Assembly: GCA_944376605.1 (NCBI GenBank)
Contig: CALWDE010000010.1
Location: 5,287 to 69,286, forward strand
DNA: 64,000 nt
DNA from: an uncultured Bacilli bacterium
Lineage (GTDB): Bacteria; Bacillota_I; Bacilli_A; RFN20; CAG-826
Direction of reading: 5' to 3'
Numbering within the stretch: the stretch's first letter is position 1; every line of letters starts with the position of its first letter. Below the pieces are notes generated by a model. It was not told where the DNA came from and made no database searches. It saw only the letters and a list, made by a program, of their open reading frames with translations. Of this stretch, positions 406 through 29,206 are shown piece after piece. A program made the position numbers and the translations under genes.

Positions 406-482
406 TGGTGGCTGAGGAGGGACTCGAACCCCCGACCTGTCGGGTATGAACCGATCGCTCTAACCAGCTGGGCTACTCAGCC
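406..482 (-). tRNA. tRNA-Met (CAU anticodon; Ile2/lysidine type cannot be excluded)
   Basis: The minus-strand cloverleaf runs GGCTGAG...CTCAGCC-A-CCA. It has the anticodon loop TT-CAT-AC, T-arm GGGGGTTCGAGTCCCTC and an encoded CCA. It does not start with the initiator-type C1 mismatch. Confidence 0.85.
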
Positions 483-509
483 ATGAGGCAAGGTAAGATA
501 GAAACAATT

Positions 510-584
510 TGGTGGAGCATAGGGGTCTCGAACCCCCGACCCCCTGCTTGCAAAGCAGGTGCTCTACCGCTGAGCTAATGCCCC
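510..584 (-). tRNA. tRNA-Ala (UGC)
   Basis: The minus-strand sequence runs GGGGCAT...ATGCTCC-A-CCA. It has the G3:U70 identity pair, anticodon stem-loop CCTGC-TTTGCAA-GCAGG, T-loop TTCGAGA and an encoded CCA. Confidence 0.9.
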
Positions 585-2633: not shown

Positions 2634-3149
2634 TTACAAGCGAAGACGTTCAAAAATGCCACTAGCGATAATGCGGTCAGCAAAAAAGCCTACCGCAAGA
2701 CCTGTGAATAATCCAACAAGTGCCATCAAAGGGAAATACCAAAACACCCCTGATGTAGAAAGAAGGATGGAAGCAATAGCAATTTGTCCTAAGCAGTGAA
2801 GGACGCTGCCAAAAAGCGAAGCCCCGTAAATAGAAAAGACTTTAGAAAAGCATTTTGCAATAAGAAGCATTCCTAAATACGACAAAATGCCTCCTGCTAA
2901 AGACATATAAAAAGGAAGAGAGAAGATTTTGCCTGTCATCAAAGAGGCAAGAAAAATCCTTCCAATATCAATAAGAAGCGCTTCACTCCACGAGAAACGG
3001 TAAATTAAAACTAAGATGATAATATTGGCTAAACCTGGCTTAAATCCAGGAAGAGAAGAAATAGGAATAAAACTCTCCGCAACAGATAAGGCAAGAGCAA
3101 GTGCTAACATGGTCGCATCGAGAGCGATTCTTCTTACAGAGGACTTCAT
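2634..3149 (-). CDS. Gx transporter family membrane protein (heptaprenyl-diphosphate-synthase-component-I-like)
   Basis: A 171 aa polytopic membrane protein that lies immediately after a NusG-II protein and ApbE, a gene trio I recognise as recurrent. It overlaps the upstream gene (3146-3149). Confidence 0.6.
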   Translation of the reverse strand: MKSSVRRIALDATMLALALALSVAESFIPISSLPGFKPGLANIIILVLIYRFSWSEALLIDIGRIFLASLMTGKIFSLPFYMSLAGGILSYLGMLLIAKCFSKVFSIYGASLFGSVLHCLGQIAIASILLSTSGVFWYFPLMALVGLFTGLAVGFFADRIIASGIFERLRL

Positions 3150-3628
3150 ACGATAATATCAACTCCTGAAGAAGAGGAACTTGGAGGAAGAGAAGCAATT
3201 TCTCCTACATATTCCACATGAACATGGTTATAAGCACAGACAATTGGTTTTCTGGGGTCAAGGGTGTAGCCAAGTGAAACGCAGTATTGAGAAGGGCAAC
3301 CAGAAGATAGCACAGCAATACCCTCTTGGCTTATCGCGAAAACCATAGGGGTTAAAGCGCCTTCAATTTCATATGCCGCTTCTACCTCTTCTCCATATAA
3401 GGAGGGATCTAATTCTTTTACTCTTTCTTCTTCATAAATCACCGATTCTTGAGGAGAAGAAAGATTCAAATAAAGAAGACACACATCATCGCAAAAGATA
3501 TTCGCCCCGCTTGCGCTAGAAGTAGGTGCTAATAGAAGAAAGATAGTTCCTAAAGTTGTCGCGAAAAGTAAAACAAAAAAGAGAATGATATCTCCTAAGT
3601 GTTTTTGCAAAAAGGCTTTCGCTTTCAT
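3146..3628 (-). CDS. NusG domain II-containing membrane-anchored protein
   Basis: It has an N-terminal TM helix and the C-terminal pattern SSGCPSQYCV...PIVCAYNHVHVE, typical of NusG_II-domain proteins. Confidence 0.6.
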   Translation of the reverse strand: MKAKAFLQKHLGDIILFFVLLFATTLGTIFLLLAPTSSASGANIFCDDVCLLYLNLSSPQESVIYEEERVKELDPSLYGEEVEAAYEIEGALTPMVFAISQEGIAVLSSGCPSQYCVSLGYTLDPRKPIVCAYNHVHVEYVGEIASLPPSSSSSGVDIIV

Positions 3629-3631
3629 TCT

Positions 3632-4723
3632 CTACTCTTCCGTAATAGGAAAATCCTCACTTAAATAAACAGAGGGATCACTTCTTCGATTATCGTAAAA
3701 GAAGAAAGAGTAGCCCATCTCTTCAAAGGCAGAAACATCTGCACTTTCTCCAAGCATTAAAAAATATGTCGATAACACGTCACAAATTGCAGCGTTTTCT
3801 CCTAATACAATCGCGGTGGTAAGCGCTGGAACGGCATTACCCGTCTTAGGGTTTACCACATGGCTATATAAAGTATTTGCAGATACATCAAAATAATGCT
3901 GATTGGTAACAGAAGAGGTACCGATTGCTTCATTTTTTACCTTAAATTTCATGCCTTCCACATCGGATACTCCTACGGTGAAAGTGCGATCTTCTGCGTA
4001 AGGATTCTCACCAACAAGAATCGAGCTGCTTCCTGCGTTAATTAAATAATAGGTAAGCTGATTATCCTCGCAAATCTCCTTTAAGCGCATCAAAGCGTAC
4101 CCTTTGCCAATCGCGCCAAAGTCTAATAAAGCGCTGCCCTCTTTTGTTGCGTAATATTTCCCATTTTTTTCTTCTAAAGTTAGAGAACTTTCTTGCATCT
4201 CTAAGATAGAAGAAGAGATTTCTTCCTCAGTTGGACGAGAAAAAGTCTCCCCGTCTTTTGGGAAAGAATCTTTCCATAACCAGTTTAAATTACCCGATAA
4301 AATATCAATGTAACCATCTGTCATCTCTTCTGCTTCTAGGGCAAAAGATAAGATGTCGTAAAAGGCTTTATCAATCTCAAAAGTGCCCTCTTTTTCACTC
4401 AGCGTTTTAGCATTTACCTGAATCCCTCCATAAGAAAGATTGGTGTCCATATAACGCGAACCAAGAGCAAAATCACTGGTAATCTCGTCATAAACATCAC
4501 TTGGAGCAACTTCCCCTTCTTCCCGCAAAAACTGAAAGCTTGTCGTCACCGCGTATGAGTAATAGTCATGCGCCGTGCTAACCACATATTTTTTTGCTTC
4601 ACTAGAAGAGAGAGAACTGGAAGAGCTTCCCTCGCACGAAGCGAGGACGAGAAGAGAGAAAAGCAGAAGAGAAAAGGATTTTTTCATACGCGCCATTCTA
4701 GTAAGAAAAAGGAGGCTCTTCAA
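3632..4723 (-). CDS. apbE: FAD:protein FMN transferase (ApbE family) lipoprotein
   Basis: It carries the ApbE signature DFGAIGKGYA and the lipoprotein signal ...LLLFSLLVLASC. The start is ambiguous: TTG at 4723, or ATG at 4696 or 4687. Confidence 0.8.
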   Translation of the reverse strand: MKSLLFLTRMARMKKSFSLLLFSLLVLASCEGSSSSSLSSSEAKKYVVSTAHDYYSYAVTTSFQFLREEGEVAPSDVYDEITSDFALGSRYMDTNLSYGGIQVNAKTLSEKEGTFEIDKAFYDILSFALEAEEMTDGYIDILSGNLNWLWKDSFPKDGETFSRPTEEEISSSILEMQESSLTLEEKNGKYYATKEGSALLDFGAIGKGYALMRLKEICEDNQLTYYLINAGSSSILVGENPYAEDRTFTVGVSDVEGMKFKVKNEAIGTSSVTNQHYFDVSANTLYSHVVNPKTGNAVPALTTAIVLGENAAICDVLSTYFLMLGESADVSAFEEMGYSFFFYDNRRSDPSVYLSEDFPITEE

Positions 4724-4736
4724 TGCCTCCTATTTG

Positions 4737-5102
4737 TTATTTCTTTTCTTCTTCCTCCTTTTCCTCGTCCTCATAGACAGGATCAGGATGGGAAGAGAGA
4801 TAACTCATGATGGGGTCAAAGTTCGCTTCCTTTTTTCCAGGACGGCAAATCTTGATATCCGCAATTTCTCCCTTCACAAGTTTTTCTGCCATTTCATGGC
4901 ATCCAGCGTTGCCGCATGCACCGCAATTATATCCAGGCAAGAGTTTTTCTACCTCTTCTACTCTTTTATCTTCTCTTACCTTAAAGATGGCATAAAAGAT
5001 ACAGAGTAAAACAGCAAAAATCGCACCAAGTCCAATTAGAAGAAGAACAGCATACAAGATTGCCATTCCGTTTTCGAAACTGACCATTAATGGAATATTC
5101 AT
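4737..5102 (-). CDS. rnfB: truncated RnfB: TM helix plus B-type 4Fe-4S domain only
   Basis: LLPGYNCGACGNAGCHEMAEKLVKGE...ICRPG matches the RnfB N-terminal Cys cluster. No CxxCxxCxxxCP ferredoxin motifs follow, and the protein ends in the acidic tail EDEEKEEEEKK. Confidence 0.7.
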   Translation of the reverse strand: MNIPLMVSFENGMAILYAVLLLIGLGAIFAVLLCIFYAIFKVREDKRVEEVEKLLPGYNCGACGNAGCHEMAEKLVKGEIADIKICRPGKKEANFDPIMSYLSSHPDPVYEDEEKEEEEKK

Positions 5103-5329
5103 AACTCTTTCTCCTCATTCTTCGTTTCTTTTTCTTCTTCACTTCCCTTTTTCTCATATAACTTGCAGCCAGCATTTGAGCAGTGCGCGCAAGCGTCTTT
5201 GTTTTTTGGGATTCTCTCACAGCCTTTTGGGGCTGGAGTTTTTACATAAAAGATGAAAGAAACAACAAAGATAATAACTAAGACGATGACAAGGACGATG
5301 GCAACAATACTTGCTACCTCACTTGACAT
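5099..5329 (-). CDS. small Cys-rich membrane protein, mini-paralogue of the RnfB N-terminus
   Basis: The 76 aa product has one TM helix (IVAIVLVIVLVIIFVVSFIF), then C-x10-CAHCSNAGC (compare RnfB CGACGNAGC), then the tail EEEKETKNEEKEL. It is ATGA-coupled to rnfB and sits 3 nt after rnfA. Confidence 0.5.
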   Translation of the reverse strand: MSSEVASIVAIVLVIVLVIIFVVSFIFYVKTPAPKGCERIPKNKDACAHCSNAGCKLYEKKGSEEEKETKNEEKEL

Positions 5330-5332
5330 AGC

Positions 5333-5917
5333 TTATACGATTCCTTGTAAACCCATGAAGGCTAACGCCATAAGTGCGGCGGTTACAAGAGCTACAGGAA
5401 CTCCCTTAAAGGCGCGAGGAGTATCAGAAGACTCTAAGCGTTCACGGATTGTCGCAAATAAGACGATCACAAGAAGATATCCAAGAGAAGTACCAATCGC
5501 ATTTCCTAAAGAAGAGAGGAAATCGAGCCCTTGGTCGGTATTTCCTTGTGCGACACCTAAAACCGCGCAGTTGGTGGTAATAAGAGGCAAATAGATACCA
5601 AGTGTCTTATAAAGAGTAGGAGAGGTCTTCTTAATAAAGATACCGACAAGTTGCACTAAACTAGCAATCACTAAAATATAAACAATGGTATCTAAGAAGG
5701 CCATGTTCGCTGGCACTAAGATATAGGTATAAATAGGCCAGCAGACAACAGAAGCTAAAATAATAACGAAAGTCACCGCTAAGCCCATCGAGAAGGCAGG
5801 CTTAACCTTGTTCCCTGTACCAACAAAAGAACAAATGCCATAGAAACGGCTTAAAACAACGTTATCAATTAAAGCCCCAGAAACAATAGCAAGAAGGAAC
5901 GCAACAAATAAATCCAT
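5333..5917 (-). CDS. rnfA: Rnf complex subunit A
   Basis: A 194 aa Rnf/Nqr-type polytopic protein with the motif GIYLPLITTNCAVLG. Confidence 0.9.
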   Translation of the reverse strand: MDLFVAFLLAIVSGALIDNVVLSRFYGICSFVGTGNKVKPAFSMGLAVTFVIILASVVCWPIYTYILVPANMAFLDTIVYILVIASLVQLVGIFIKKTSPTLYKTLGIYLPLITTNCAVLGVAQGNTDQGLDFLSSLGNAIGTSLGYLLVIVLFATIRERLESSDTPRAFKGVPVALVTAALMALAFMGLQGIV

Positions 5918-5919
5918 AC

Positions 5920-6639
5920 TTATTTCCCTCCTTCAGCGGCGGCTTTTTTAGCGTTAAGCGCATCCACTTTTGCTTTATTTTTCTTGTAAGAAGAAGCGGC
6001 AGCAATAATCGCAAGGGCAATGCCAAGTACTAAGAATCCGCCAAGTGAACGCTGGAAGAATTCGATTGAGTAATCATAGACTCCTTCGAGTTTTAAAATA
6101 GGTAAAGAATATTCTGGAATAAAGGTGAACACTCTTCCAAAAGTAATCATTCCTGTTCCTAAAATTTCACGAACAAGAGCGATAGCGCAAATAGCCCATG
6201 TAAAGCCAATTCCGTTTCCAAGTGCATCTAAAGTGCTATTTAAAACGGTATTTTTGGAAGCGTAAGCTTCGCTTCTACCAAGAACAATACAGTTGACCAC
6301 AAGAAGAGATAAGAACACTCCTAACGAGGTATATAGTTCCGGTAAAAATGCTTCACAAATCATCTTCACTACCGTAACAAAGGTCGCAATGATGACGATG
6401 TAGCAAGGAGTCGTGACTTCTTCTGGAATAATCTTCCGAAGAAGCGAAACAAAGATATTGGAACCAAGAAGAACAAAAGTGAACAAAATGCCCATGCCAA
6501 TTGCAGATTCAAAATTAGTGGTTACCGCTAAAGCAGGACACATTCCCAGTAAGGAAACGAACAAAGGATTCGCTTTCCAAATACCGGAAACGAAGGCTTC
6601 TTTTCTTTCTTCTCTTAGACTAAGAGCCGTTTCTCCCAT
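5920..6639 (-). CDS. rnfE: Rnf complex subunit E
   Basis: GIWKANPLFVSLLGMCPALAVT and LVVNCIVLGR are typical RnfE/NqrD motifs. Confidence 0.9.
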   Translation of the reverse strand: MGETALSLREERKEAFVSGIWKANPLFVSLLGMCPALAVTTNFESAIGMGILFTFVLLGSNIFVSLLRKIIPEEVTTPCYIVIIATFVTVVKMICEAFLPELYTSLGVFLSLLVVNCIVLGRSEAYASKNTVLNSTLDALGNGIGFTWAICAIALVREILGTGMITFGRVFTFIPEYSLPILKLEGVYDYSIEFFQRSLGGFLVLGIALAIIAAASSYKKNKAKVDALNAKKAAAEGGK

Positions 6640-6658: not shown

Positions 6659-9600
6659 TTAGGCGATTGCAAGATAGGCATTGAAGCATTGGTCATAAAT
6701 GGCAGTAGCAACAGCATAATAAGTTTCATCACCAGTTAAGTTACTTCCCCCAAAAAGAGTTTCAATGCTACTCGCCCAAGTCTTTAAATCTTCAAAGTTC
6801 GTATACCCATCTGTATTAGCAATCTTTAAGCCGCGAATGCTATAGGCATCATCTGCAAAGGCTAAAGCGCATTCGAAAGTATGAGACTCTACTGTAACAT
6901 TGAAGGTAACAATTTGAGCAAAAGGTTCTCCTAAAAGAAGTACATCATAAGAAGTGAAGGTGTCGTCAATAGTTGTTGCTGCACCAATGCTAGAACCAGA
7001 GGCGTAAGTGCCATCTTCGATAAATTCATTGACGATATCAGGAATAGAGGTGCTTGGTGCATCTGGATCAAAGTTAGAAGCTTCGTTCATGGCAGTTTTA
7101 AGAGAAGCTACCACATCAGAAATATCCGCACCTGCTACAGGCTCTTCCCTATTGTTATAAGAGCTTGCCCAATCAAGGAGAGCAGAAATATGTTCATATT
7201 CTCCCCAGCTGCTGATATAGATGCTTGTAAAGTCTGCATTATCAACAGCGACATAGAAAGAAATCGTTTCAGAACCCGCTAAAATCGAACCAGTGAACAT
7301 TCTTCCCTGGCTTCCTTCATAGGTAACATCGTAGTATTCGGTGAAAATAGAAGAACCATCGATGCTTGTTGCACTTTCATAGTAGCAGCTTGGCGTGAAG
7401 GCTTCATTCATCGCTTCTTCTAATGTGTAGCCATCTGCAGGATTTGGTTCTACTGGTTCATCAGGTTCATCGGTAGGAAGAGTTCCTTTGTAGTACTCCA
7501 CTAAAGCAGTAGAGATACGGTTTACAGTTTCTTCATTTCTTGTTCCAGTCTCTGAAACAACATCCACCGCGCTAACAACATCGCTCACCTCGTCAGTAAC
7601 TAAATCACCAACCGAGATAAGAAGTGTTGCGCTATAAGAATCCTCTTTGATGTTTGCAACATAAACATTGCCGGGATAAGTAGGAGTTCCGCCTAATGGA
7701 TCACTAGAAGGAACATAAACGCTGTAATAAGTCTTTCCTACTTCTGGAGTACCTGCTAAAGTGAAGTTTCCACCCATCGTATCATACTTAGCATTTTCAC
7801 CAAAGTTCTTCGTGACTACTTCGCCAATCTTAGCGGAAATATCTTCTTCCACATTCACGCCATAGTCTCTTTGGGCATCTTCAATCGCGCCGATTAAACT
7901 ATTAATTTCGCTAGCAGCAGCGTTTTCGCTATCAGGAGCAGTAAGTGTCTTGCTGCTATTTGTGCTGCTAATCCACTCATTTAAGGCGGTTAAAGCAGTA
8001 TCTGTTAAAGCAGTAGAAATAAGCTTCACTTCTACAAAAGAGGCATCCGCATTTAAAGCGACGTAGAAAGTGTTATCGGCAGCAGTTTCTAAACGTACTG
8101 CATAAACTCTACCAATCTCTTCGCCTTCTGCATCATAAGCACTGTAATAGGCATAAGCGTACCAAACATTGCTAATAGAGACTTTCTCGCTCCAGCTAGA
8201 AGCAGCAGGAAGCATAGTAGTAACCTCTTCTGGCGCGGTTAAATCAGGATTTTCAGTTGGATCAGTAATTCCCGCAATTTCTTTTACCTCATCTAGCATA
8301 GCAGCAATCGAATAAGCAGCTTGCTCGCACCCAGAAGTAGCAATATCATCGCGATAATCTACTGTGCCATTATTAATCTTTTCTATCCATCCTTTGACGC
8401 CTGTTACATAAGCAGCGTCATAGGAAGAGGTGTAATAACCAACTTTGATGTTCTTATCAGCATCAACTGAAACAAGAATACCTAAGCTATCACCAGATTG
8501 TTCATAAGTAGCTTGATAGACTGTTGCAAGCGTATCGCCATTATCATCAAGAGCTAAACGAGTAGTTTTAACAAAGTCATGACCTTCCACGCTTTGCACA
8601 TCTCCCCAGATAGCATCAGGAAGTAATGCGTCATAAGCAGCTTGCTCTTCCTCTGTTAATTCACCGCTTGAAGAGCCACCATTTTGATAATCGGAAATAG
8701 CCTCCGTTACAATGCTTTGAATGGTCGCATAAGAAGCACCTGCGCTAGGCGCCGTCTCAAAATTAGAAGGATCTTCATTAACAGAATCCACCCAGTCTTT
8801 AATCGTGTCTTCTGTTTCTGCTGGATTGCCACCAGAATAATCTTCAAGCAACATGCCCGTAACGGCGTAATTCGTATCAAGACCAACTAAGATTTCAATA
8901 TGGACACCAAAATTATTAGTACCTGCACCAAGATATGCTCTGCCTAAGAGAGTATTGGCAGAATCATAAACTTCGCGGTAAGAGGTAATGTAATCCCCGG
9001 TAACAGTAACCTCATTTCCAGTGGATGCGGCGCCTTCAAATAAATCAAGATATTTTTGATTTTCACTAGAAGAACCACCATCTTGATAATCGGAAATGGC
9101 CTCCGTTACAATGCTTTGAATGGTCGCGTAAGAAGCACCTGCGCTAGGAGCAGTATCAAAGTTAGAGGGATCTTCGTTCACAGAATCTACCCAGTCTTTA
9201 ATGGTATCTTCTGTTTCTGCTGGAGTGCCGCCAGAATAGTCTTCTAATGACATACCAGTAACCGCATAATTAGTATCAAGACCAACTAAGATTTCGATAT
9301 GGACACCAAAACCGTTAGTGCCCGCACCAAGATAACCTCTACCAAGTAAAGCGTTATTTGCACCATACACCTCGCGATAAGAGGTGAGATAAGTGCCAGA
9401 TAGAGTCACTTCATCTCCAACCGATGTAGCGCCTTCAAATAGATCGAGATATTTTTGAGCGCCATCAGGGAGTGGAGTAGAACCGCCTCCTTCATAAGAG
9501 GCTAAAGCTTCGGCAATCATTTCACGAATCACACCAGCTGAGTTAGAAGCGCCAGTGGTGACTCCATTTTCTAAATTCGCAGGATCTTCGTTAATCGAGT

Positions 9601-10015
9601 CAATCCATCCTTCGATAACATTGGTAGTGCCGCCTGTGTTATCTGGTCCATAAGAGACAAGATTCACATGAACAAGACCTTCCTCATTAACACCGACAAT
9701 TAAGTTAATTGGTGCGCCAAAGCCAGAAGTACCCGTTACCACATAGCCCTTACCAATTTCGTTACCACTTGCATCAAGCGCGCTGCGGTAACCAGTAACA
9801 TATGTCTTTCCTGTTACTTCTACTAAATCACTAAAACTAGCGGCATCAGGGAAGCATTCCCGGAAAGCTGCTGTTTCTTTATCTTGACTATGACTAGAAA
9901 TAATACCTTCTGTAAAAGCGTTCACTGTACCAATAATGGCACCAGCTCCACCTCCCACTAAAGCAAGAACCGCTACAACACTTAAAACGTGTTTCCAATC
10001 AATTTTTAGTTTCAT
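6659..10015 (-). CDS. rnfG: giant RnfG-like subunit: N-terminal TM anchor plus about 8 tandem FMN_bind-like modules (1118 aa)
   Basis: It lies in the rnfG slot between rnfD and rnfE. The ATG at 10015 overlaps the rnfD TGA as ATGA; the track ORF extends to 10123 inside rnfD. It has the TM helix HVLSVVAVLALVGGGAGAIIG and repeated ~130 aa modules. Three of them carry [ST/A]GA[ST]-type motifs (TTGASNS, SAGASYAT twice). Confidence 0.75.
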   Translation of the reverse strand: MKLKIDWKHVLSVVAVLALVGGGAGAIIGTVNAFTEGIISSHSQDKETAAFRECFPDAASFSDLVEVTGKTYVTGYRSALDASGNEIGKGYVVTGTSGFGAPINLIVGVNEEGLVHVNLVSYGPDNTGGTTNVIEGWIDSINEDPANLENGVTTGASNSAGVIREMIAEALASYEGGGSTPLPDGAQKYLDLFEGATSVGDEVTLSGTYLTSYREVYGANNALLGRGYLGAGTNGFGVHIEILVGLDTNYAVTGMSLEDYSGGTPAETEDTIKDWVDSVNEDPSNFDTAPSAGASYATIQSIVTEAISDYQDGGSSSENQKYLDLFEGAASTGNEVTVTGDYITSYREVYDSANTLLGRAYLGAGTNNFGVHIEILVGLDTNYAVTGMLLEDYSGGNPAETEDTIKDWVDSVNEDPSNFETAPSAGASYATIQSIVTEAISDYQNGGSSSGELTEEEQAAYDALLPDAIWGDVQSVEGHDFVKTTRLALDDNGDTLATVYQATYEQSGDSLGILVSVDADKNIKVGYYTSSYDAAYVTGVKGWIEKINNGTVDYRDDIATSGCEQAAYSIAAMLDEVKEIAGITDPTENPDLTAPEEVTTMLPAASSWSEKVSISNVWYAYAYYSAYDAEGEEIGRVYAVRLETAADNTFYVALNADASFVEVKLISTALTDTALTALNEWISSTNSSKTLTAPDSENAAASEINSLIGAIEDAQRDYGVNVEEDISAKIGEVVTKNFGENAKYDTMGGNFTLAGTPEVGKTYYSVYVPSSDPLGGTPTYPGNVYVANIKEDSYSATLLISVGDLVTDEVSDVVSAVDVVSETGTRNEETVNRISTALVEYYKGTLPTDEPDEPVEPNPADGYTLEEAMNEAFTPSCYYESATSIDGSSIFTEYYDVTYEGSQGRMFTGSILAGSETISFYVAVDNADFTSIYISSWGEYEHISALLDWASSYNNREEPVAGADISDVVASLKTAMNEASNFDPDAPSTSIPDIVNEFIEDGTYASGSSIGAATTIDDTFTSYDVLLLGEPFAQIVTFNVTVESHTFECALAFADDAYSIRGLKIANTDGYTNFEDLKTWASSIETLFGGSNLTGDETYYAVATAIYDQCFNAYLAIA
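8660..9457 (-). repeat. 2 x 399 bp in-frame tandem duplication inside rnfG (modules 2 and 3)
   Basis: The string ttgataatcggaaat(a/g)gcctccgttacaatgctttgaatggtcgc recurs at 8684 and 9083, a 399 bp period. The encoded 133 aa units, both starting QKYLDLFEGA, differ at about 19 positions by manual alignment. Confidence 0.9.
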
Positions 10016-11160
10016 GAGATTTTTCCTCCATAATAGATCCCTAAAAGTAGGACCAAAATAACTGCAAAGATAATGCCTCCTACAAGGAGTGCTTTTTTCC
10101 AAGTCCAGCGAGAACTTGCCCATTTGGGATAATCAAGCGCCGGAGTAAGAAGGTTAGCAAGAAGAATCGAATAACCAACTCCCTCTGGACTGCTTGAGAA
10201 TAAACGAATAATGACAGTTAAACAGCCCGCGATTAAAGCGTACATATAACGGCCAGGTTTCGTTACGGGAGAAGTAACAGGATCAGTTAGCATAAAGGTC
10301 GCACCAAACAGCATCCCGCCCGATAAAAATTCAAAGCCAATAAAGTGCCAAGCATTGAAATTATCCACAAGACCGCTTGATGCAATCGCAATGGACGCAA
10401 TCGCCATCAAAGCGGTAAACGTCCCAATGTAGGTGAAGGTGATTCGCCAGTCAATCGCTTGACGAAGAAGTAAATAAAGTAAGCCAACAAGGATAAGCAC
10501 CTTGCAAACTTCACCCATCGCTCCTTGCGTTTTTCCAAGGAATAAATCAAGAAGAGAAATATCCGCAATAGAGGAATATCCTCCGCTAGAGATTCCGCTT
10601 AGCACTGTGCCGCCTGTTGTGATATCAATAATAGGCGAAGTGCCTTCTGTCCAGTAAATGGGCGAATATGTCATGGAACTGCTGAAAGATAAACGCGTAA
10701 TCAGCATCCCTACTGCCGCAGGGTTAAAAATGTTATGTCCTGTCCCGCCAAAAACCAGTTTAGCAAAGACAATCCCGCATAAGGCACCAATAAAAACGCC
10801 ATACCAAGAAGTAGAAGCTGGAAGACACATCCCGTAAATAAGAGCGCTGACAAGAGGCGCCAAAGCATTTAAGGGAGTGTAACTCTTTATCGCATAAAGG
10901 AACTTCTCTTGGAAAGAATGTTTCATGCCGTCATAGGGCATCTTTCCTTTAATCATAACAAATACCCACTCGGCAAGAAGCATCGTGGGAATAGAAATGC
11001 CAAAGACCTTTAACGCGTCAAGTCGGTAAATAATAAAGGAAAAAATAAGAAGAGGGAGTAAGGCAAGAATGACATCAAGCATCATGATCGAGGCGCTATC
11101 TCTGCGTCTCACGTGAGGACTTGGTTCTTGCAAACTGCGTACTGGATTCATTTCACTCAT
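10012..11160 (-). CDS. rnfD: Rnf complex subunit D
   Basis: A polytopic NqrB/RnfD pattern with a flavinylation-type motif ITTGGTVLSG. It overlaps both rnfC and rnfG. Confidence 0.9.
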   Translation of the reverse strand: MSEMNPVRSLQEPSPHVRRRDSASIMMLDVILALLPLLIFSFIIYRLDALKVFGISIPTMLLAEWVFVMIKGKMPYDGMKHSFQEKFLYAIKSYTPLNALAPLVSALIYGMCLPASTSWYGVFIGALCGIVFAKLVFGGTGHNIFNPAAVGMLITRLSFSSSMTYSPIYWTEGTSPIIDITTGGTVLSGISSGGYSSIADISLLDLFLGKTQGAMGEVCKVLILVGLLYLLLRQAIDWRITFTYIGTFTALMAIASIAIASSGLVDNFNAWHFIGFEFLSGGMLFGATFMLTDPVTSPVTKPGRYMYALIAGCLTVIIRLFSSSPEGVGYSILLANLLTPALDYPKWASSRWTWKKALLVGGIIFAVILVLLLGIYYGGKIS

Positions 11161-12458
11161 AATTTGGCAATCCTTTTGGCCCTCCTTACAAATTCCGTAA
11201 CATTAATGTGACTTGTACAAGCATATGCACATAAGCCGCATTCGACGCAGCGTTCAGGGTGTAATGATTTTACTTTTGCTTTATCCCCTGCTTTTACTGC
11301 ACTAGCAATAAGAACAGGCATTAGATGAGTAGGGCAGCTATAAACGCAAGACCCGCAACGGACGCAAGGATCTGCTTTATAGGGTGCTTCATCTAAAACA
11401 AGAAGAGAGGTTACTGTTGGAGAGCAGATGACATCATCAGAATTTACTGTGTTCCCCATCATAGGACCGCCAAAAATAAGACGTTTCTTCTTACCTGAAT
11501 CGGTATAACCTCCGCATAAAGCGACAAGATCTTGGATAGGGGTACCAATTCTCACTTTGAAGAATTTTGGATTTACCACGCCGTCTCCATGAATTTGCAC
11601 ATATCTTTCTAAAAGAGGAGTGCCATAACGAATGGCAAGATATAAGGAATAAATAGTAGCAACGTTATATTCCAAAACGCCATATTCTGCAGGAAGATGG
11701 CCGCTTTCTACTTCAATGCCAGTCGCACTTTTAATACAAGCAACTTCCCACCCTTGTGGATAAAAGTTATACACTTGGCAATAGGAAACTCCGCTGCCTT
11801 CCTCTCCTGCCAAAGCGCTGCTAAAGGTGGACTCTAAATCTTTATAAATCCACTTTGCACAAATCTTGCCTTCTTTGGCTCCAACCGCCTTCATTAAATA
11901 CTTCACGCCCTCAATAATCTCATGAGGATGTTCGAGCATTAAGCGGTGGTCACTAGCTAAGGAAGGTTCACATTCCACTCCGTTAATCACAATGGTGTGG
12001 ATATCGTGTTCACCTTGCAGTTTGACATAGCTAGGGAAGGAAGATCCTCCAAGTCCAACAAGTGCCATATCTTTCATGATGTTGAGCACATCATCTTTCG
12101 TTAAAGAAGCAATCTCTTCTTCGCTCCTCTCATGGCAAAGGGAGCTTAATTCATCCTGGAAATCATTTTGAATCTTCAAAAAGTCACAGGTTTTGCCCGT
12201 ATGGTGAAGGTGTTTTTCAATGCCAAGATAAGTTCCTGAAACAGTGGAAATAATCGGCTGTTCAAAGAATGGACCTTTCCGCATTCCGAGTTTGTCGCCA
12301 ATCTTGACATGATCCCCTTCTTTGACATCAAGCGTGTAAGAAGCGCATCTTCCATTTGTACCTGCTAAAAATACAAAAAGAGGAAGGGGAGCTTCCTCTA
12401 ACTCCTGATGAGAAAGAAGTACCGCGGGCAGTTCAATATGCCTTGCTTTCGCTATCAT
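11157..12458 (-). CDS. rnfC: Rnf complex subunit C (NADH-binding, 2 x 4Fe-4S)
   Basis: It has GLGGSSFPSYVKL (SLBB/NADH site) and two ferredoxin motifs, CVRCGSCVYSCP and CVECGLCAYACTS. Confidence 0.9.
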   Translation of the reverse strand: MIAKARHIELPAVLLSHQELEEAPLPLFVFLAGTNGRCASYTLDVKEGDHVKIGDKLGMRKGPFFEQPIISTVSGTYLGIEKHLHHTGKTCDFLKIQNDFQDELSSLCHERSEEEIASLTKDDVLNIMKDMALVGLGGSSFPSYVKLQGEHDIHTIVINGVECEPSLASDHRLMLEHPHEIIEGVKYLMKAVGAKEGKICAKWIYKDLESTFSSALAGEEGSGVSYCQVYNFYPQGWEVACIKSATGIEVESGHLPAEYGVLEYNVATIYSLYLAIRYGTPLLERYVQIHGDGVVNPKFFKVRIGTPIQDLVALCGGYTDSGKKKRLIFGGPMMGNTVNSDDVICSPTVTSLLVLDEAPYKADPCVRCGSCVYSCPTHLMPVLIASAVKAGDKAKVKSLHPERCVECGLCAYACTSHINVTEFVRRAKRIAKL

Positions 12459-22593: not shown

Positions 22594-24030
22594 TTACTTT
22601 GATAACGCCTTTTGATAAAGCTTTAAGTATTTTCCTGCCGAAGAAGACCAACTGTAGTTTTTCTTCATTGCTACTTTGGCAACTCGGTAGTAATTTTCTT
22701 GGTTTCGGTATAGCTCTTCTGCTCGATAAATCGCGTAATCGAGGCCGCCGATATTATAGTCTTCAAAAGCGATACCGTCTTCCCCAAGAGAGGTAATTCT
22801 ACCATCATAAGGAACAATCGTATCGGCTAAACCGCCTGTCTTTCTTACAATTGGTAAAGTGCCATATCTCTGAGCAATCATTTGGCTAAGGCCGCACGGT
22901 TCAAATAAAGACGGCATAAGGAAGAAATCACTTCCTGCATAAATCTTATGGGCAAGTTGATCGTTATAGCCAATATAAATGCCGCATGTATCTGGGTACT
23001 GGCTTCTTAAAACCTCAAACTTTTGTTCTAGTTCTCTTTCGCCAGAACCAAGTAAAACAAAATTGCCGCCTTTCGATAAAATGCTTCTCGCCTCATCAAG
23101 CACCAAATCAATACCTTTTTGCCAAGTAAGGCGCGAAACAATTCCGTAAACTGGTCCACCATACCAGTGAAGATTGTAGCAACGTAATAAATCGGCTTGA
23201 TTAAGATGCTTTGCACTCTCTAAGGAAGAGACGTTATAACGCTTCACAATATAGTGATCATGAAGAGGATTCCATTCTCCATAATCGATTCCGTTTAAAA
23301 TACCGTAAAAATCTAAGCGGCGATATTCCAAAACAGTATCGAGTCCTTGCCCTCCTTCGCGCGTAAGAAGTTCTTCCTTATGCGTAGGAGAAACAGTGGT
23401 AATAATATCGCTATAAATAATCCCTGATTTAAGGGTGGAGAACATGCCCTCAAAGCGGACTTTTCCCATGTCATATAAATAATCGGGGAGATTGAAAAAA
23501 TCTGTTAAGAAATAACGGTCAAGCATTCCTTTAAAAGCAGGATTATGAATGGTCAAAATTGTCTTTATCTTTGCAAAACGGGCATCATTGTAGTAATTTT
23601 CATGAATTAAGGTTGGAATAATGGCCGCTTGCCAGTCATGAACGTGAACAATATCTGGCATCGCATCAAGATAGGTGAGTGCCTCTGTTGCCGCAAGCGC
23701 AAAAAAGGCAAAACGTTCTCCATCATCCATATAGCCATACATCTTTTCTCTGCGGAAATAATAGTCATTGCTAACAAGGTAGTAGTCAATGCGGTCCACC
23801 TGCGCATGATAGATTCTAGCGCGCTGAACTCTCCAAGACATTTTAATGTCAAATTCCCCAACGTAATTCATGTCATACTGCTTATTTTCTATTTGTTGGT
23901 AATAAGGCATGATGATAGAAACGTTTTGTTTTTTCGCTGCTAAAGCGCGTGAGAGAGAATAAACCACATCTGCTAAACCGCCTGATTTAGCAAAAGGAAG
24001 TGCCTCGCTGGCAATCATTGCTACTTTCAT
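22594..24030 (-). CDS. glgA: glycogen synthase
   Basis: It has the N-terminus [23 protein letters not shown] and a GT5-family pattern. Confidence 0.9.
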
Positions 24031-25145
24031 AAAATGGCTCCTTGTGGGAAATAAATAATATTGCTGGGATCGCCTTTTAGCTCATGTCTTGCTGTGACAA
24101 TAACGTATTTATCCACAACAACATCTTGAAGCGAAGAACGATCGCCAATAGCAACATTTGAGAGGATAATCGAACGACGAACTTTTGCATGCCTACCAAT
24201 ACGAACATTACGGCATATAATCGAATCTTTTACTTCTCCTTCAATGACGCAGCCATTGGAAATGAAAGAGTTACTAACAGAAGACTCTTCTCCATATAAA
24301 GCAGGTGGAGTGTCATGAGTAAGAGTGTAAATAGGTCTTTCTTCTAAAAATAAAGAAGAAGCGATATTTCGATCGAGAAGTTCAAAACTATAATCCACAT
24401 AATGCTTAAGAGAATCAAAGCAGCGCGCATATCCCTTAAACTCATGGGCGTGAATACGGAATAAATGGTTATTTAAGCAATAAGGTAACAGCTCTCTTAC
24501 CCCCCAAGAGGCATCTACCATTTGATGACGACGGGTAAGCTCAGCAAGTAAGGTACGATTAACAATAATAATTTCTAAAGACACTTTTGCCTTTTTCTTA
24601 CTGCCATCATTTTTCTCCATCTTTTTGACATAGCCCTCTTCATCTAGGTGAATAATGTCTCCTCCTAAAAAGGAAGTAAGACAATCTTCTCTTTCTTGAT
24701 AAACGAGCGTGCATTCTTCTTTTCGCGCGATGTGTTCTTCTAAAATTGGTCTTAAATCAATATTGAGAAGAATGTGGGGAGAAGCAAAAACAATGTAATT
24801 TGCTTGCGAATCATAAAGCACCCAGTCATTTTCCCGAATATTGGCAATATCGGAATTATAAGCAGGATTTAGGAGCCCTTTTTCGTTATAAAAGATATGC
24901 ACATGACCAGTTTTGGTATTGTTCACCCAAGAGAGCATGTTTCCCATATGTTTTAAAATGGAACGTTGATGATCTTTTACCAAAACGCCTACAGTAGGAA
25001 TTTCTGAATTACAGAAGTTTGACAAAGTAAAGTCAATAAAGGCATATCTTCCTAAAAAACTAGTGGAGGCGAGAGTGCGGTGCGCGGTTAACTCTCCAAG
25101 AGAAGGGGAAGTATGGCAATCCACCAATCCAATCACGTCTTTCAT
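24027..25145 (-). CDS. glgD: glucose-1-phosphate adenylyltransferase, GlgD subunit
   Basis: It is a paralogue of GlgC without the GGxGxRL motif, with a left-handed beta-helix C-terminus. Its position between glgC and glgA matches Firmicutes. Confidence 0.8.
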   Translation of the reverse strand: MKDVIGLVDCHTSPSLGELTAHRTLASTSFLGRYAFIDFTLSNFCNSEIPTVGVLVKDHQRSILKHMGNMLSWVNNTKTGHVHIFYNEKGLLNPAYNSDIANIRENDWVLYDSQANYIVFASPHILLNIDLRPILEEHIARKEECTLVYQEREDCLTSFLGGDIIHLDEEGYVKKMEKNDGSKKKAKVSLEIIIVNRTLLAELTRRHQMVDASWGVRELLPYCLNNHLFRIHAHEFKGYARCFDSLKHYVDYSFELLDRNIASSLFLEERPIYTLTHDTPPALYGEESSVSNSFISNGCVIEGEVKDSIICRNVRIGRHAKVRRSIILSNVAIGDRSSLQDVVVDKYVIVTARHELKGDPSNIIYFPQGAIL

Positions 25146-26284
25146 TCGTCTTTCCTCCCTTTGCTATTGGCAATCAAAACAATTGACTCTCCGCCAACAT
25201 TAATTTCTTCTCCTATATCAGTCCCGGCTCCAGGACCAACAATGCAGTTTTCAATATGCGAACCTTTTCGAATAATGACATTATTCATAATCACAGCGTT
25301 TTTGCAGATAGCACCCTCTTCAATTAAGGTGTCACCCGAAACAACACAGTGATCAATCTCGCCTTCTACCGTTGCTCCTTGATTCACCAAACTATCACGA
25401 ACAACAGCCTTTTTTCCAATATATTGAGGGATAGAGAAAGGGTCTTCACTATAAATACGATTGCTCCCCTGGACGCTATATAGATTTGTTTTATTTTCTC
25501 CAGACATAAGCAAATCCATATTAGCTTGATGAAGAGAGGCAACTGTTCCTACATCGCGCCAATATCCTGAATAGCGATACACAACAAGACGCTTTTTCTC
25601 GTTTAGCATTTTCGGAATGATATTTTTTCCGAAGTCATGTTCGCTTGTTTCATCTTTGGCATCTTGAATTAAAGCCGCTCGTAACACTTTATAAGTGAAA
25701 ATATAAATACCCATAGAAGCTAAATTCGATGTTGGCTTCTTAGGCTTCTCCACAAATTCAACAATGTTGCTATCTTTATCAGCGACTAAGATACCAAAGC
25801 GAGAAGCTTCCTCTATTGCAACTGGATAAGCGCTAATCGTACAATCAGCTTTTTTTGCAATATGTGTCTTAAGCATTTCATCATAGGAACAAGAATAAAT
25901 GTGGTCCCCTGATAAGATTAAGACATATTCCGGATCAACACGGTCTAGCCAGTCAAGGTTTTGCGTAATAGCATCAGCAGTTCCCAAATACCAAGCACTG
26001 CCTTCTTCCGTTTGCTTTGGCGTTAAAACAGAGGTGAGAGAACGAACTCCGTTTAACCCCCATTTTTCTCCGTTACCGACATAGGTGTTTAATTCGCTAG
26101 ATTCATACTGCGTCAAGACACCTACCGAGGTGATGCCAGTGTTTGCACAGTTGCTAAGAGGAAAATCAATGATGCGATATTTTCCACCATAACTAACTGC
26201 TGGCTTGGCGATTTTACGAGTCAAGGCTTGAAGCCGCGTACCTTTTCCGCCCGCAAGAATCATGGCCGCCAATTTCGTAGACAT
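25142..26284 (-). CDS. glgC: glucose-1-phosphate adenylyltransferase
   Basis: It has AMILAGGKGTRLQALTRKIAKPAV and FVEKP motifs. Confidence 0.9.
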   Translation of the reverse strand: MSTKLAAMILAGGKGTRLQALTRKIAKPAVSYGGKYRIIDFPLSNCANTGITSVGVLTQYESSELNTYVGNGEKWGLNGVRSLTSVLTPKQTEEGSAWYLGTADAITQNLDWLDRVDPEYVLILSGDHIYSCSYDEMLKTHIAKKADCTISAYPVAIEEASRFGILVADKDSNIVEFVEKPKKPTSNLASMGIYIFTYKVLRAALIQDAKDETSEHDFGKNIIPKMLNEKKRLVVYRYSGYWRDVGTVASLHQANMDLLMSGENKTNLYSVQGSNRIYSEDPFSIPQYIGKKAVVRDSLVNQGATVEGEIDHCVVSGDTLIEEGAICKNAVIMNNVIIRKGSHIENCIVGPGAGTDIGEEINVGGESIVLIANSKGRKDE

Positions 26285-26461: not shown

Positions 26462-26896
26462 ATGAGTAAATTTAACTCGCGAAATAATGTCCTCATTGTT
26501 GGCTGTGGAAGACTTGGTGCTTCCATCGCGAATCGTTATAGCGAATCTGGCATTAATGTCATTGTAGTAGATAAAGACGAAGACGCCTTTGATCGACTCG
26601 ATCAACTTTTTGCTGGTGATCGCCAAGTTGGGGATGCCACCAATATTTCTTTTTTAACAAACGCTTGCCGTATTGAATCGGCCACTCGCGTTTTCTTAGT
26701 GTCTGGGAATGACAACGTGAATCTATTTCTTGCACACGTGTGCGCAAAAGTGTTCTCTATCCCAAGAATCTACGTCCGCTTTGATGATCCCGACCGCAGT
26801 GAACTAGTCAAAGATTTGCCAGGTGTGATTGCCATCTCCCCCTTCCAGCTTACCTTGGAAAAATTAACCGCTTTAGAAAAGGAGGACGAGCAATGA
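26462..26896 (+). CDS. TrkA-N (RCK N-terminal) NAD-binding protein
   Basis: It has the Rossmann motif LIVGCGRLGASIA, is 144 aa long with no RCK_C domain, and has an AGGAGGG RBS. Confidence 0.7.
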   Translation: MSKFNSRNNVLIVGCGRLGASIANRYSESGINVIVVDKDEDAFDRLDQLFAGDRQVGDATNISFLTNACRIESATRVFLVSGNDNVNLFLAHVCAKVFSIPRIYVRFDDPDRSELVKDLPGVIAISPFQLTLEKLTALEKEDEQ

Positions 26897-27576
26897 AAGT
26901 TGTTGTTGCAGAAGGAACTAGCCAAGCTGCCTACGTCATTGACTCTTTTCGTGAACACGGCCATGAGCTTGTTGTAATCAACAGTTCTCATGAGACCGCT
27001 CAAGATCTTGCTACTACGCATCATGTTCCCGTTTATGTTGGTCGTCCTTGGCGAAGATTTGCTTTAGAAGAGGCAGGAGTGAAAGGCGCTGACTTATTTA
27101 TCGCCCTTTCTCCAAGCGATATGGATAATTTCGCTTCGTGTCTCATGGCAAAGAATTTATTTTCAGTAAAAAAGGTTATCTGCCTTGTTGATAACCCTGC
27201 AAAAGTCGACTTATTTAAGAAATTAGGCATTGATTCAGTCATTTGCTCTACCTACTTACTTGCCAATTCTATTTTGAGTGAGGCAACCTTACGCAAAATG
27301 ATTAAATCTCTCGCTATGGAGGATGAAAGTTTTGCAATGGTGGAATCCACTGTTTCTGCGGAAGACCGTATTGCCAATATGAAGATTATGGATATGAACT
27401 TCCCTAGTTACGCCTCCATTGCCGCAATTGTTCGTAATCACCAAATGATTGTACCAAATGGTTCTGTCATTCTTTATCCAGAAGATAAGCTCTATGTGGT
27501 TGCGGCAAGCGAGAATGAAGAAAAATTAATGGCGTTCTTGAAAGAGGAGAAAGATCATGGAGAAGCAACCCGTTAA
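26893..27576 (+). CDS. trkA: TrkA/KtrA-like RCK protein (RCK_N plus RCK_C)
   Basis: The 227 aa product has an RCK_C-like C-terminus. The Gly-rich loop is degenerate (VVVAEGTSQAA). It is ATGA-coupled to the upstream gene. Confidence 0.65.
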   Translation: MKVVVAEGTSQAAYVIDSFREHGHELVVINSSHETAQDLATTHHVPVYVGRPWRRFALEEAGVKGADLFIALSPSDMDNFASCLMAKNLFSVKKVICLVDNPAKVDLFKKLGIDSVICSTYLLANSILSEATLRKMIKSLAMEDESFAMVESTVSAEDRIANMKIMDMNFPSYASIAAIVRNHQMIVPNGSVILYPEDKLYVVAASENEEKLMAFLKEEKDHGEATR

Positions 27577-29206
27577 GGGAGCGCGCCTCATTTTTGGCTA
27601 TTTAGGAGTCTTCCTAATTTTTGAGGGGATTATTACTATTTCTCCCCTTTTAATGCTCCTTTTTTATCATCAAGAATGGGCGGCCTATCCTTCCTTTTTG
27701 ATTCCAGGGCTTATCGCGGTCGCTTTAGGACTAGCCTTATATTTCCCTTTAATTCATAACAGACCTCGAAATAGATTCCGTAAAAGAGAAGACGCTCTTT
27801 TGCTCACTCTTGTTTGGCTAACTGCTGTTTTATTTGGTGCATTTCCTTTTTATATCGGCGGTTTTTTTGGACAAGCTCAGATGTCTTTTTCGGAAGCGTT
27901 CTTTGAATCAATGTCGGGATACTCCGCGACAGGATTTACTGTCTTCCCTAACGAAGCATTTTTAGATGGTCCTGATGTGATTCAATACTGTTCGCATCTC
28001 TATTTATTTCATCGCGCGGTAACGCATTTCTTTGGTGGAATTGGACTAGTTCTTGTTATCACAAGCGCCATTAGTGACCGCTATAATTTGCAGCTATATT
28101 TTGCAGAAGGCCATAATGACCGTTTATTGCCTAATATGCGAAGATCTGCAAAGCTCACCTTCCTTATTTATTTTGCATATATCGCGCTTGGCACTTTCGC
28201 GTTTTTCCTTGCAGGAATGGATCCTTTTGAAGGATTTTGCCAAGCAACCGCGGCAATTGCTACGGGCGGATTCTCTACTAGAAGCACGGGCTTTTATTGG
28301 TATGCAAGTAACTATGCTGCTGGACTATATACTGGCTTTGGAGTTACTCCTTGGTGCAGTCCTATTGCCTTTGAAGTAATTGCTATGGTCTTAATGTTCC
28401 TTGGGGCAACTAACTTCATTCTTCATACTTATCTTTTCCGCGGAAAAATTAAGCAGTTTATTAAAGATTGCGAGTTCCAGTCGATGGCTATTTTTATTCT
28501 GCTATTTGCCATGCTGATGATGTTCTCTATGACTTATCTATACACGGATGAGTCACTAAATAACATGATTGGCCTTGACTGGGCTACCTCCTTCCGTTAC
28601 TCCATCTTTACCGTAATCTCTTCTATATCCACCACAGGATTTACCAACTGTGCCAATTTAATGCAGTTAGGTGAGGTTGCCTATTTCATTATGATTATCT
28701 TAATGATTCTTGGTGCCGGGGTTGGCTCAACGGGTGGCGCGATTAAGCAGTACCGCGTTGTGATCTTAGCAAAAGAACTTTATTGGTGGATCCGCGACGC
28801 GCTCAACCCCACTCGCCTCATTCATCCCCGTCCTGTATACCGTCTTGGTCAAACAAGAGAAATTTCTAAGAAAGAGTTACGCGACACGAATAACTATTCC
28901 TTCCTTTATATCGTTGTTTTAGCAGCTTTTGCCTTAATGATGATGATGTTACCTGGTATTCGTGTACAGGAAGGCTTATTTACAAGCGCTTCTGCCTTAT
29001 CAGGAACAGGATTATCCATTGTTAACTTCTTCGCTTATAAAGCAGAATTTGGTTATAACTATGACTTACTGCTTTGGATAACCTCACTAGCAATGCTTCT
29101 GGGACGTCTTGAAATCTTACCTATTGGCAGTGCTTTGGTGAAGATGGCTACCGCCCCACGCGATCTCTTGCAAAAAAGGGCGAACTTAGAAGAGGCAAAA
29201 TCATAA
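27557..29206 (+). CDS. trkH: TrkH family potassium uptake membrane protein
   Basis: The 549 aa polytopic product has repeated selectivity-filter-like segments (SGYSATGFT, ATGGFSTR, STTGFTN, LSGTGLS). Confidence 0.8.
   Translation: MEKQPVKGARLIFGYLGVFLIFEGIITISPLLMLLFYHQEWAAYPSFLIPGLIAVALGLALYFPLIHNRPRNRFRKREDALLLTLVWLTAVLFGAFPFYIGGFFGQAQMSFSEAFFESMSGYSATGFTVFPNEAFLDGPDVIQYCSHLYLFHRAVTHFFGGIGLVLVITSAISDRYNLQLYFAEGHNDRLLPNMRRSAKLTFLIYFAYIALGTFAFFLAGMDPFEGFCQATAAIATGGFSTRSTGFYWYASNYAAGLYTGFGVTPWCSPIAFEVIAMVLMFLGATNFILHTYLFRGKIKQFIKDCEFQSMAIFILLFAMLMMFSMTYLYTDESLNNMIGLDWATSFRYSIFTVISSISTTGFTNCANLMQLGEVAYFIMIILMILGAGVGSTGGAIKQYRVVILAKELYWWIRDALNPTRLIHPRPVYRLGQTREISKKELRDTNNYSFLYIVVLAAFALMMMMLPGIRVQEGLFTSASALSGTGLSIVNFFAYKAEFGYNYDLLLWITSLAMLLGRLEILPIGSALVKMATAPRDLLQKRANLEEAKS

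Follow-up and report, generated by a model that had tools for sequence, protein, structure and literature searches.

A single-cluster RnfB and a small Cys-motif membrane protein encoded in the Rnf operon of a chicken-gut bacterium

The Rnf operon

The stretch of DNA analysed here (64 kb, hereafter the window) comes from a chicken-gut bacterium and carries on its minus strand one tightly packed Rnf operon, in the order rnfC-D-G-E-A-mini-B-apbE-nusG_II-Gx (Table 1), where mini designates a 76 aa ORF situated between rnfA and rnfB. This ten-gene order is common to divergent Acholeplasmataceae (loci L001, L229 and L230), in which apbE, the NusG_II gene and the Hpre_diP_synt_I gene also keep their positions; the product of the last of these is probably involved in flavin trafficking for ApbE. 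RnfC matches the Pfam families RnfC_N, Complex1_51K, SLBB and Fer4, and the Cys that serve as ligands of the RnfA/E [2Fe-2S] cluster are kept (Cys29 and Cys117 in RnfA, two Cys in RnfE). The stop codon of mini and the start codon of rnfB overlap in a 4-base ATGA, read as TCAT at 5099-5102 on the plus strand, and the Shine-Dalgarno sequence of rnfB (GAGGAG) falls within the 3' end of mini. The positions and the ATGA coupling assigned to the 76 aa and 121 aa ORFs in the initial annotation were confirmed, on the minus strand.

Table 1. Genes of the Rnf operon in the window, listed in operon order
Gene	Position	Strand	Length (aa)	Features and best profile or structure matches
rnfC	11157..12458	-	433	NADH/FMN module and two 4Fe-4S motifs; TIGR01945, E 3e-93
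rnfD	10012..11160	-	382	PF03116, E 8e-78; TIGR01946, E 9e-56
giant rnfG-like gene	6659..10123	-	1154 as listed	N-terminus matches TIGR01947 (rnfG), E 2e-7
rnfE	5920..6639	-	239	PF02508, E 6e-59; NF009070, E 1e-68
rnfA	5333..5917	-	194	TIGR01943, E 7e-72; chains 9eri_A and 7zc6_A, E 3e-56
mini	5099..5329	-	76	TM helix, Cys motif and acidic tail
short rnfB	4737..5102	-	121	TM helix and FdI domain; PF04060
apbE	3632..4723	-	363	FMN transferase acting on RnfD and RnfG; lipoprotein with a TTG start; PF02424, E 1e-35
NusG_II-domain membrane protein	3146..3628	-	160	PF07009, E 2e-8
Hpre_diP_synt_I family polytopic membrane protein	2634..3149	-	171	PF07456, E 8e-40

Elsewhere in the window, genes for tRNA-Met(cat) and tRNA-Ala(tgc) (406-584, minus strand) lie downstream of a lipoprotein-like ORF of 303 aa (712-1623) that has no Pfam match. 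A glycogen synthesis cluster (22594-26284, minus strand), encoding a GlgA-like starch synthase and two NTP-transferase/hexapeptide proteins, adjoins a TrkA/TrkH potassium uptake pair (26893-29206, plus strand), both being unrelated to the Rnf finding. A Pfam search of 20 ORFs outside the operon, mostly between 13.7 and 35 kb, returned housekeeping genes and neither a ferredoxin nor a PFOR.

An RnfB reduced to its FdI domain

RnfB has been described as a TM helix followed by a flexibly tethered one-cluster domain that feeds the [2Fe-2S] of RnfA/E and by a C-terminal domain of variable make-up, holding 2-7 clusters, which acts as ferredoxin acceptor (PMC12174285), FdI being regarded as a flexible shuttle to RnfA/E (PMC12174285; PMC9588780). 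In the 121 aa protein of the window, the sole Pfam match is PF04060 ('FeS'; residues 55-88, E 2.8e-11, 43.4 bits versus a 23-bit cut-off). The protein has no Fer4 Pfam match and no CxxCxxCxxxC motif, and in the entire 64 kb the only such motifs are the two in RnfC, which bears out the original view of this RnfB as an N-terminal Fe-S domain lacking ferredoxin domains. It covers positions 4-104 of the 190-position TIGR01944 rnfB model, scoring 57.2 bits and falling short of the 68.7-bit cut-off because half of the model is missing. Set against characterised RnfB proteins, as the initial annotation had proposed, the match runs over residues 4-78 of the solved chains 7zc6_B, 9eri_B and 8ahx_B, TM helix included, and so falls within the N-terminal 78 residues of all three.

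The FdI motif reads C60-x2-C63-x4-C68-x17-C86, with all four Cys invariant in 12 relatives; proteins similar to this RnfB, 101-121 aa long, form 12 clusters. The protein does not end just after the cluster, as had been stated, since 35 residues follow the fourth Cys, among them the segment NFDPIxxYLxxHP that is kept across the lineage, the C-terminus consisting of a conserved helix and then a clade-specific acidic tail. Beyond the fourth Cys, short RnfBs also display a basic patch, C(K/R)PGKK(D/E)KN, that none of the three solved RnfBs possesses. An AF2 model of moderate confidence (pLDDT 70.6) places a helix over residues 3-39, and a fold search with this model returned weak matches only, the best being the [4Fe-4S] domain of CFeSP (E 0.23); a likeness of FdI to this domain of CFeSP, the corrinoid iron-sulfur protein, has been noted before (Vitt et al. 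2022, PMC9588780).

How widespread this form of RnfB is was assessed in 81 related loci, namely the best 80 of 490 retrieved in a genome scan together with L001, the 80 coming from Acholeplasmataceae, Anaeroplasmataceae, Mariniplasma, Peloplasma, an Izemoplasma-like genome and gut or rumen 'Bacilli/Erysipelotrichaceae' MAGs. RnfB is 100-125 aa long in all 81 and its ORF invariably stops 22-35 residues past the fourth Cys. Control RnfB proteins from Peptoniphilus, Ruminococcus and other Firmicutes are mostly 254-305 aa long, carry three Fer4 motifs and are encoded directly after rnfA. That a frameshift or assembly error removed the ferredoxin region, or that the 76 aa ORF is non-coding, is so improbable as to be negligible. 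Such an artefact is refuted by the same class of stop position in 81/81 loci, by contigs from three independent metagenome runs that over 4600-6000 differ by substitutions only and contain no indels, by an apbE gene that begins 13 nt past the rnfB stop and, as regards the small ORF, by strong HMM support for its family. The sequencing error envisaged as a possible pitfall in the initial annotation was thus looked for without being found, the truncation it wished to see checked in related genomes recurs in every one of the 81 loci, and its central observation, that the cytoplasmic ferredoxin-docking module is missing, stands as a genuine and lineage-wide loss of the C-terminal poly-ferredoxin part.

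A second kind of short RnfB was noticed in three Bacilli/Erysipelotrichia MAGs (L082, at 8001-8315, L083 and L085). It is 101-104 aa long, has the motif CGACGCPGC and a tail of the type ...GPDGxxVxVKM, and is encoded directly after rnfA with no mini; L082 has an RnfG of normal size (178 aa) and no apbE downstream.

The small protein encoded between rnfA and rnfB

The mini protein consists of an N-terminal TM helix (approximately residues 3-30), the sequence P-K-G-C37-x9-C47-x2-C50-x4-C55, in which the first spacing is x9 and not the x10 given originally, and an acidic tail. Basic residues follow the helix, and by the positive-inside rule the tail would face the cytoplasm. An AF2 model of mini alone has a TM helix with pLDDT > 90 and a Cys region at about 55, with no confident fold. 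There is no family for this protein in Pfam or NCBIfam. In a set of 5.8 billion proteins its family comprises 119 clusters, named nothing but 'hypothetical protein' where named at all and devoid of Pfam domains, while an exhaustive HMM search retrieved 216 representatives with E-values down to 1e-25, all of 49-101 aa and never fused to another protein.

The gene lies between rnfA and rnfB in 81/81 loci (the best 80 of 490 and L001). In loci with a resolved rnfA end the gap between rnfA and mini is mostly -4 to +4 nt, and even divergent members sit in an operon of the order rnfC-D-G(-G')-E-A-mini-B-apbE-NusG_II-Gx. Mini is absent from about 48 resolved loci with a long RnfB, such as those of Peptoniphilus and Ruminococcus, and present only beside short RnfB. 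It is missing beside the short RnfB of L082, L083 and L085, where rnfB abuts rnfA, and mini is hence not strictly required for a one-cluster RnfB. The accession list given for the rnf genes of Peloplasma omits it (PMC11122141). Mini is a real, conserved and previously unnamed Rnf-associated protein that probably carries a metal or Fe-S site.

Across the family the motif can be written C-x9-C-x2-C-x3-9-C, the distance between the first two Cys being fixed and that between the last two variable. The CxxC is found in 66 of 66 unique sequences; 63 of these have the third Cys and about 54 have the first. Members lacking the first Cys occur in L004, L006, L009, L010 and L027, and those of L034 and L069 retain just the CxxC and His residues (CSGCH..., CTACH...); such Cys-poor members suggest a variable or shared set of metal ligands. 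The C-termini of mini and of short RnfB seem to co-vary by clade, both ending in ...VK[LI] in Acholeplasmataceae and both bearing poly-acidic tails in the clade of the window. A 253-nt metatranscriptome contig from run X17 (window 4970-5222) spans the mini/rnfB junction and shows six changes, the majority being C>A or G>T, through which mini would lose its stop, rnfB would lose its ATG and the invariant Cys50 would become Phe. Poor sequence quality, not true variation, is probably the cause, and in view of these changes the contig counts only as weak evidence of transcription.

Mini had been presented as a 76 aa paralogue of RnfB, a relationship that the profile comparisons do not bear out. 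With hhalign, the mini family and short RnfB align over 12 columns around CxxCx4C and nowhere else (83% probability), the mini HMM matches exactly one ORF in the window and retrieves no RnfB ORF, and PF04060 does not match mini. An origin of mini as a degenerate duplicate of the 5' end of rnfB (TM helix and first three Cys) would be compatible with that alignment, with a CxxCx4C located 19-20 residues past the TM helix in both proteins, and with weak matches of 1-2 of 40 mini members to two NCBIfam rnfB/RsxB models (E 0.004-0.03). It is nevertheless decidedly unlikely, and would concern origin only, as the likeness is confined to the Cys motif, the fourth ligand lies on the opposite side and the HMM misses RnfB. 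Moreover, the 'NAGC' look-alike (CxHCSNAGC) is found only in the clade of the window, the family majority having a CESC-x5-8-C consensus unlike that of RnfB; with a Cys spacing that varies from x3 to x9 over the family, the resemblance is clade-specific.

RnfG and its relation to the short RnfB

The N-terminus of the giant RnfG-like protein also matches the RnfG chains 7zc6_G and 9eri_G, and it is the only part to match RnfG models. Translation probably begins at the ATG at 10018, in which case the protein has 1119 aa and its gene overlaps rnfD by 7 bases. Its sequence includes two near-identical copies, in tandem, of an approximately 150 aa repeat (KYLDLFEGA...GGSSS), along with several modules that look FMN-binding, and the protein is a member of the described class of multi-flavinylated RnfG (Meheust et al. 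2021, PMC8238504). The initial annotation had tied the form of RnfB to this neighbour, and here it has to be corrected. RnfG sizes in loci with short RnfB and mini are 172-230, ~330, ~500 and 1000-1114 aa, with the smallest class present in many lineages and the largest only in the close relatives of the window. Since short RnfB and mini also occur beside an RnfG of normal size, the pair is not tied to giant RnfG; multi-flavinylation of RnfG and the RnfB/mini feature are separate, the two traits being uncoupled across lineages.

Two consecutive RnfG-like genes were seen between rnfD and rnfE in the Acholeplasmataceae loci L229 (4149-5734; 196 and 332 aa) and L230 (3750-5704; 326 and 324 aa). 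Such paired genes probably explain MDI6452239, the accession skipped between rnfG and rnfE in the rnf list of Peloplasma.

Electron path and possible roles of mini

An RnfB with a single cluster is already described and functional, and the minimal RnfB is in itself not new. That of T. maritima has a mass of 10.56 kDa and one predicted cluster (Kuhns et al. 2020, PMC7414866) and was described as having 'only FdI domain' (Vitt et al. 2022, PMC9588780), and the purified T. maritima Rnf oxidizes C. pasteurianum ferredoxin with NAD+ and transports Na+ (PMC7414866). An Rnf with a one-cluster RnfB can thus work with ferredoxin, and a partner other than ferredoxin need not be invoked. By analogy, the Rnf encoded in the window is most likely a functioning ferredoxin:NAD+ complex with an RnfB of the minimal type.

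The initial annotation had inferred an Rnf variant whose partner is not soluble ferredoxin, or for which ferredoxin domains are supplied in trans. In this scenario, the complex with its giant RnfG would serve some other partner, for instance in extracellular electron transfer driven from NADH, which would account for the Fer4 module missing from RnfB and would accord with the proposal that multi-flavinylated RnfGs branch electrons to extracytosolic acceptors (PMC8238504). It appears very unlikely. The ferredoxin:NAD+ activity of the T. maritima complex with its one-cluster RnfB (PMC7414866; PMC9588780) runs counter to the first version, and the second finds no conserved Fer4 gene other than rnfC within about 8 kb of the operon in 83 loci, though one could lie elsewhere in the genome. 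Furthermore, the complex keeps FdI, RnfC and the ligands in RnfA/E, short RnfB and mini predate and are independent of the expansion of RnfG (172-230 aa in many loci), and PFOR and hydrogenases are present in Peloplasma aerotolerans, a relative whose operon (L071) is of the same type (PMC11122141).

The reading preferred here, to which a probability of roughly 55% is attached, is that of a complete working Rnf with ferredoxin docking on FdI and with mini as a metal or Fe-S accessory at the junction between RnfB-FdI and RnfA/E. This operon type, common to Acholeplasmatales-like wall-less and gut Bacilli, would encode a complete and functional complex in which the minimal RnfB provides a membrane anchor and a mobile FdI domain with a single [4Fe-4S]. 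As the T. maritima enzyme leads one to expect, FdI itself is most likely the docking site of reduced ferredoxin, and it would pass electrons to the intramembrane [2Fe-2S] of RnfA/E, as in solved Rnf complexes, from where they would travel via RnfG-FMN, RnfD and RnfC to NAD+, or in the reverse direction. Mini would be no second RnfB but a separate single-pass membrane protein, translationally coupled to rnfA and rnfB, whose Cys motif is predicted to face the cytoplasm and which may act as a metal- or Fe-S-binding accessory at that junction.

Several roles can be considered for such an accessory. NqrM-like delivery of Fe or Fe-S, or stabilization of the RnfA/E centre, is the tentative favourite, though held at less than even odds; a stoichiometric redox subunit with a cluster of its own is somewhat unlikely, a structural Zn knuckle more clearly so, and something else altogether has a slim chance. 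The balance tips slightly towards an NqrM-like maturation factor over a redox micro-subunit or a structural element. The location of mini among the structural genes, together with its translational coupling on both sides, fits a subunit better than a maturation factor. These features, and the occurrence of mini exclusively with short and never with long RnfB, are what would be expected of an extra redox subunit whose Cys-held [4Fe-4S] or [2Fe-2S] replaces FdII/III as a ferredoxin-docking or relay site ahead of FdI, and its C-x9-C-x2-C-x4-8-C motif appears to resemble the known [4Fe-4S] motif of WhiB-like proteins. We consider this rather unlikely, because the Cys count falls to 3 or 2 in several lineages, which argues against an obligate four-Cys cluster site, because the short RnfB of T. 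maritima works with no extra clusters and three loci have a short RnfB and no mini, and because the Cys region of mini has no confidently predicted fold in AF2. That mini is an unrecognized seventh Rnf component, either a counterpart of NqrM or a cluster-bearing micro-subunit that offsets the loss of the poly-ferredoxin part, is possible but doubtful.

If this were true, a distinct Rnf subtype would exist in Acholeplasmatales-like Bacilli. In NQR, assembly of the intramembrane [2Fe-2S], an unusual centre also found in Rnf, requires NqrM, and mini, located between rnfA and rnfB and with more than 200 clusters, is a concrete and testable candidate for an assembly factor of Rnf or for a new subunit. 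Annotation also deserves correction, as papers on this lineage give the operon as 'rnfCDGEAB as in Clostridia' and leave mini out.

Comparison with known systems

Two families of small membrane proteins share features with mini. FeoB-associated Cys-rich membrane proteins (PF12669) are likewise small, with a single TM helix and a Cys-rich tail. PF12669 matches 22 of 40 mini members weakly (best E 0.003) and fails to match the mini of the window even at E <= 10; given the weakness of these matches and neighbours that are always rnfA/rnfB and not feoB, membership of this family was rejected. NqrM (PF04400) is a small membrane Fe-S maturation protein of nqr operons and was extracted from 56 gammaproteobacterial nqr loci, a representative matching PF04400 with E 2e-22. 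NqrM and mini have analogous plans, with ~60-100 aa, an N-terminal TM helix, a short basic linker, four Cys on the side taken as cytoplasmic, the first of them preceded by G, and a charged tail, and both are encoded with apbE in operons for Rnf/Nqr-type pumps. They differ in Cys spacing, which is GSCGG-x9-C-x-C-x3-C in NqrM versus C-x9-C-x2-C-x3-9-C in mini (the first Cys being missing in ~18% of the latter), and in gene position, NqrM being encoded after apbE and mini between structural genes. In one hhalign comparison the two profiles ran collinearly over 64 columns, starting in the TM helix and reaching the first Cys (58% probability), and a second gave 22%, both weak, and PF04400 matched 0 of 40 family members at E <= 10; homology of mini and NqrM is thus not established.

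Canonical RnfB proteins, such as those of C. tetanomorphum (7ZC6_B, 274 aa), A. woodii (9ERI_B, 333 aa) and A. vinelandii (8AHX_B, 174 aa), have in common with that of the window the N-terminal TM helix and the FdI motif CxxCx4C...C (residues 4-78), and rnfB of the window is likewise last of rnfCDGEA-B. Their C-terminal domain, with 2-7 [4Fe-4S], a role as ferredoxin acceptor and RnfC binding, is entirely missing from the window protein. The T. maritima Rnf, a Na+-pumping ferredoxin:NAD+ oxidoreductase, has the same RnfB composition (TM helix and one [4Fe-4S] domain) and the same order rnfCDGEAB, and no extra small ORF is reported for it, the comparison being with its published description rather than its sequence. 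Unlike in that description, RnfB of the window ends in a conserved helix followed by an acidic tail, and the operon includes mini between rnfA and rnfB as well as apbE and putative flavin-trafficking genes. With 121 aa and a single Cys4 motif, the RnfB of the window belongs by size to the T. maritima type, a class of ~10-13 kDa proteins made of FdI only and with one predicted cluster.
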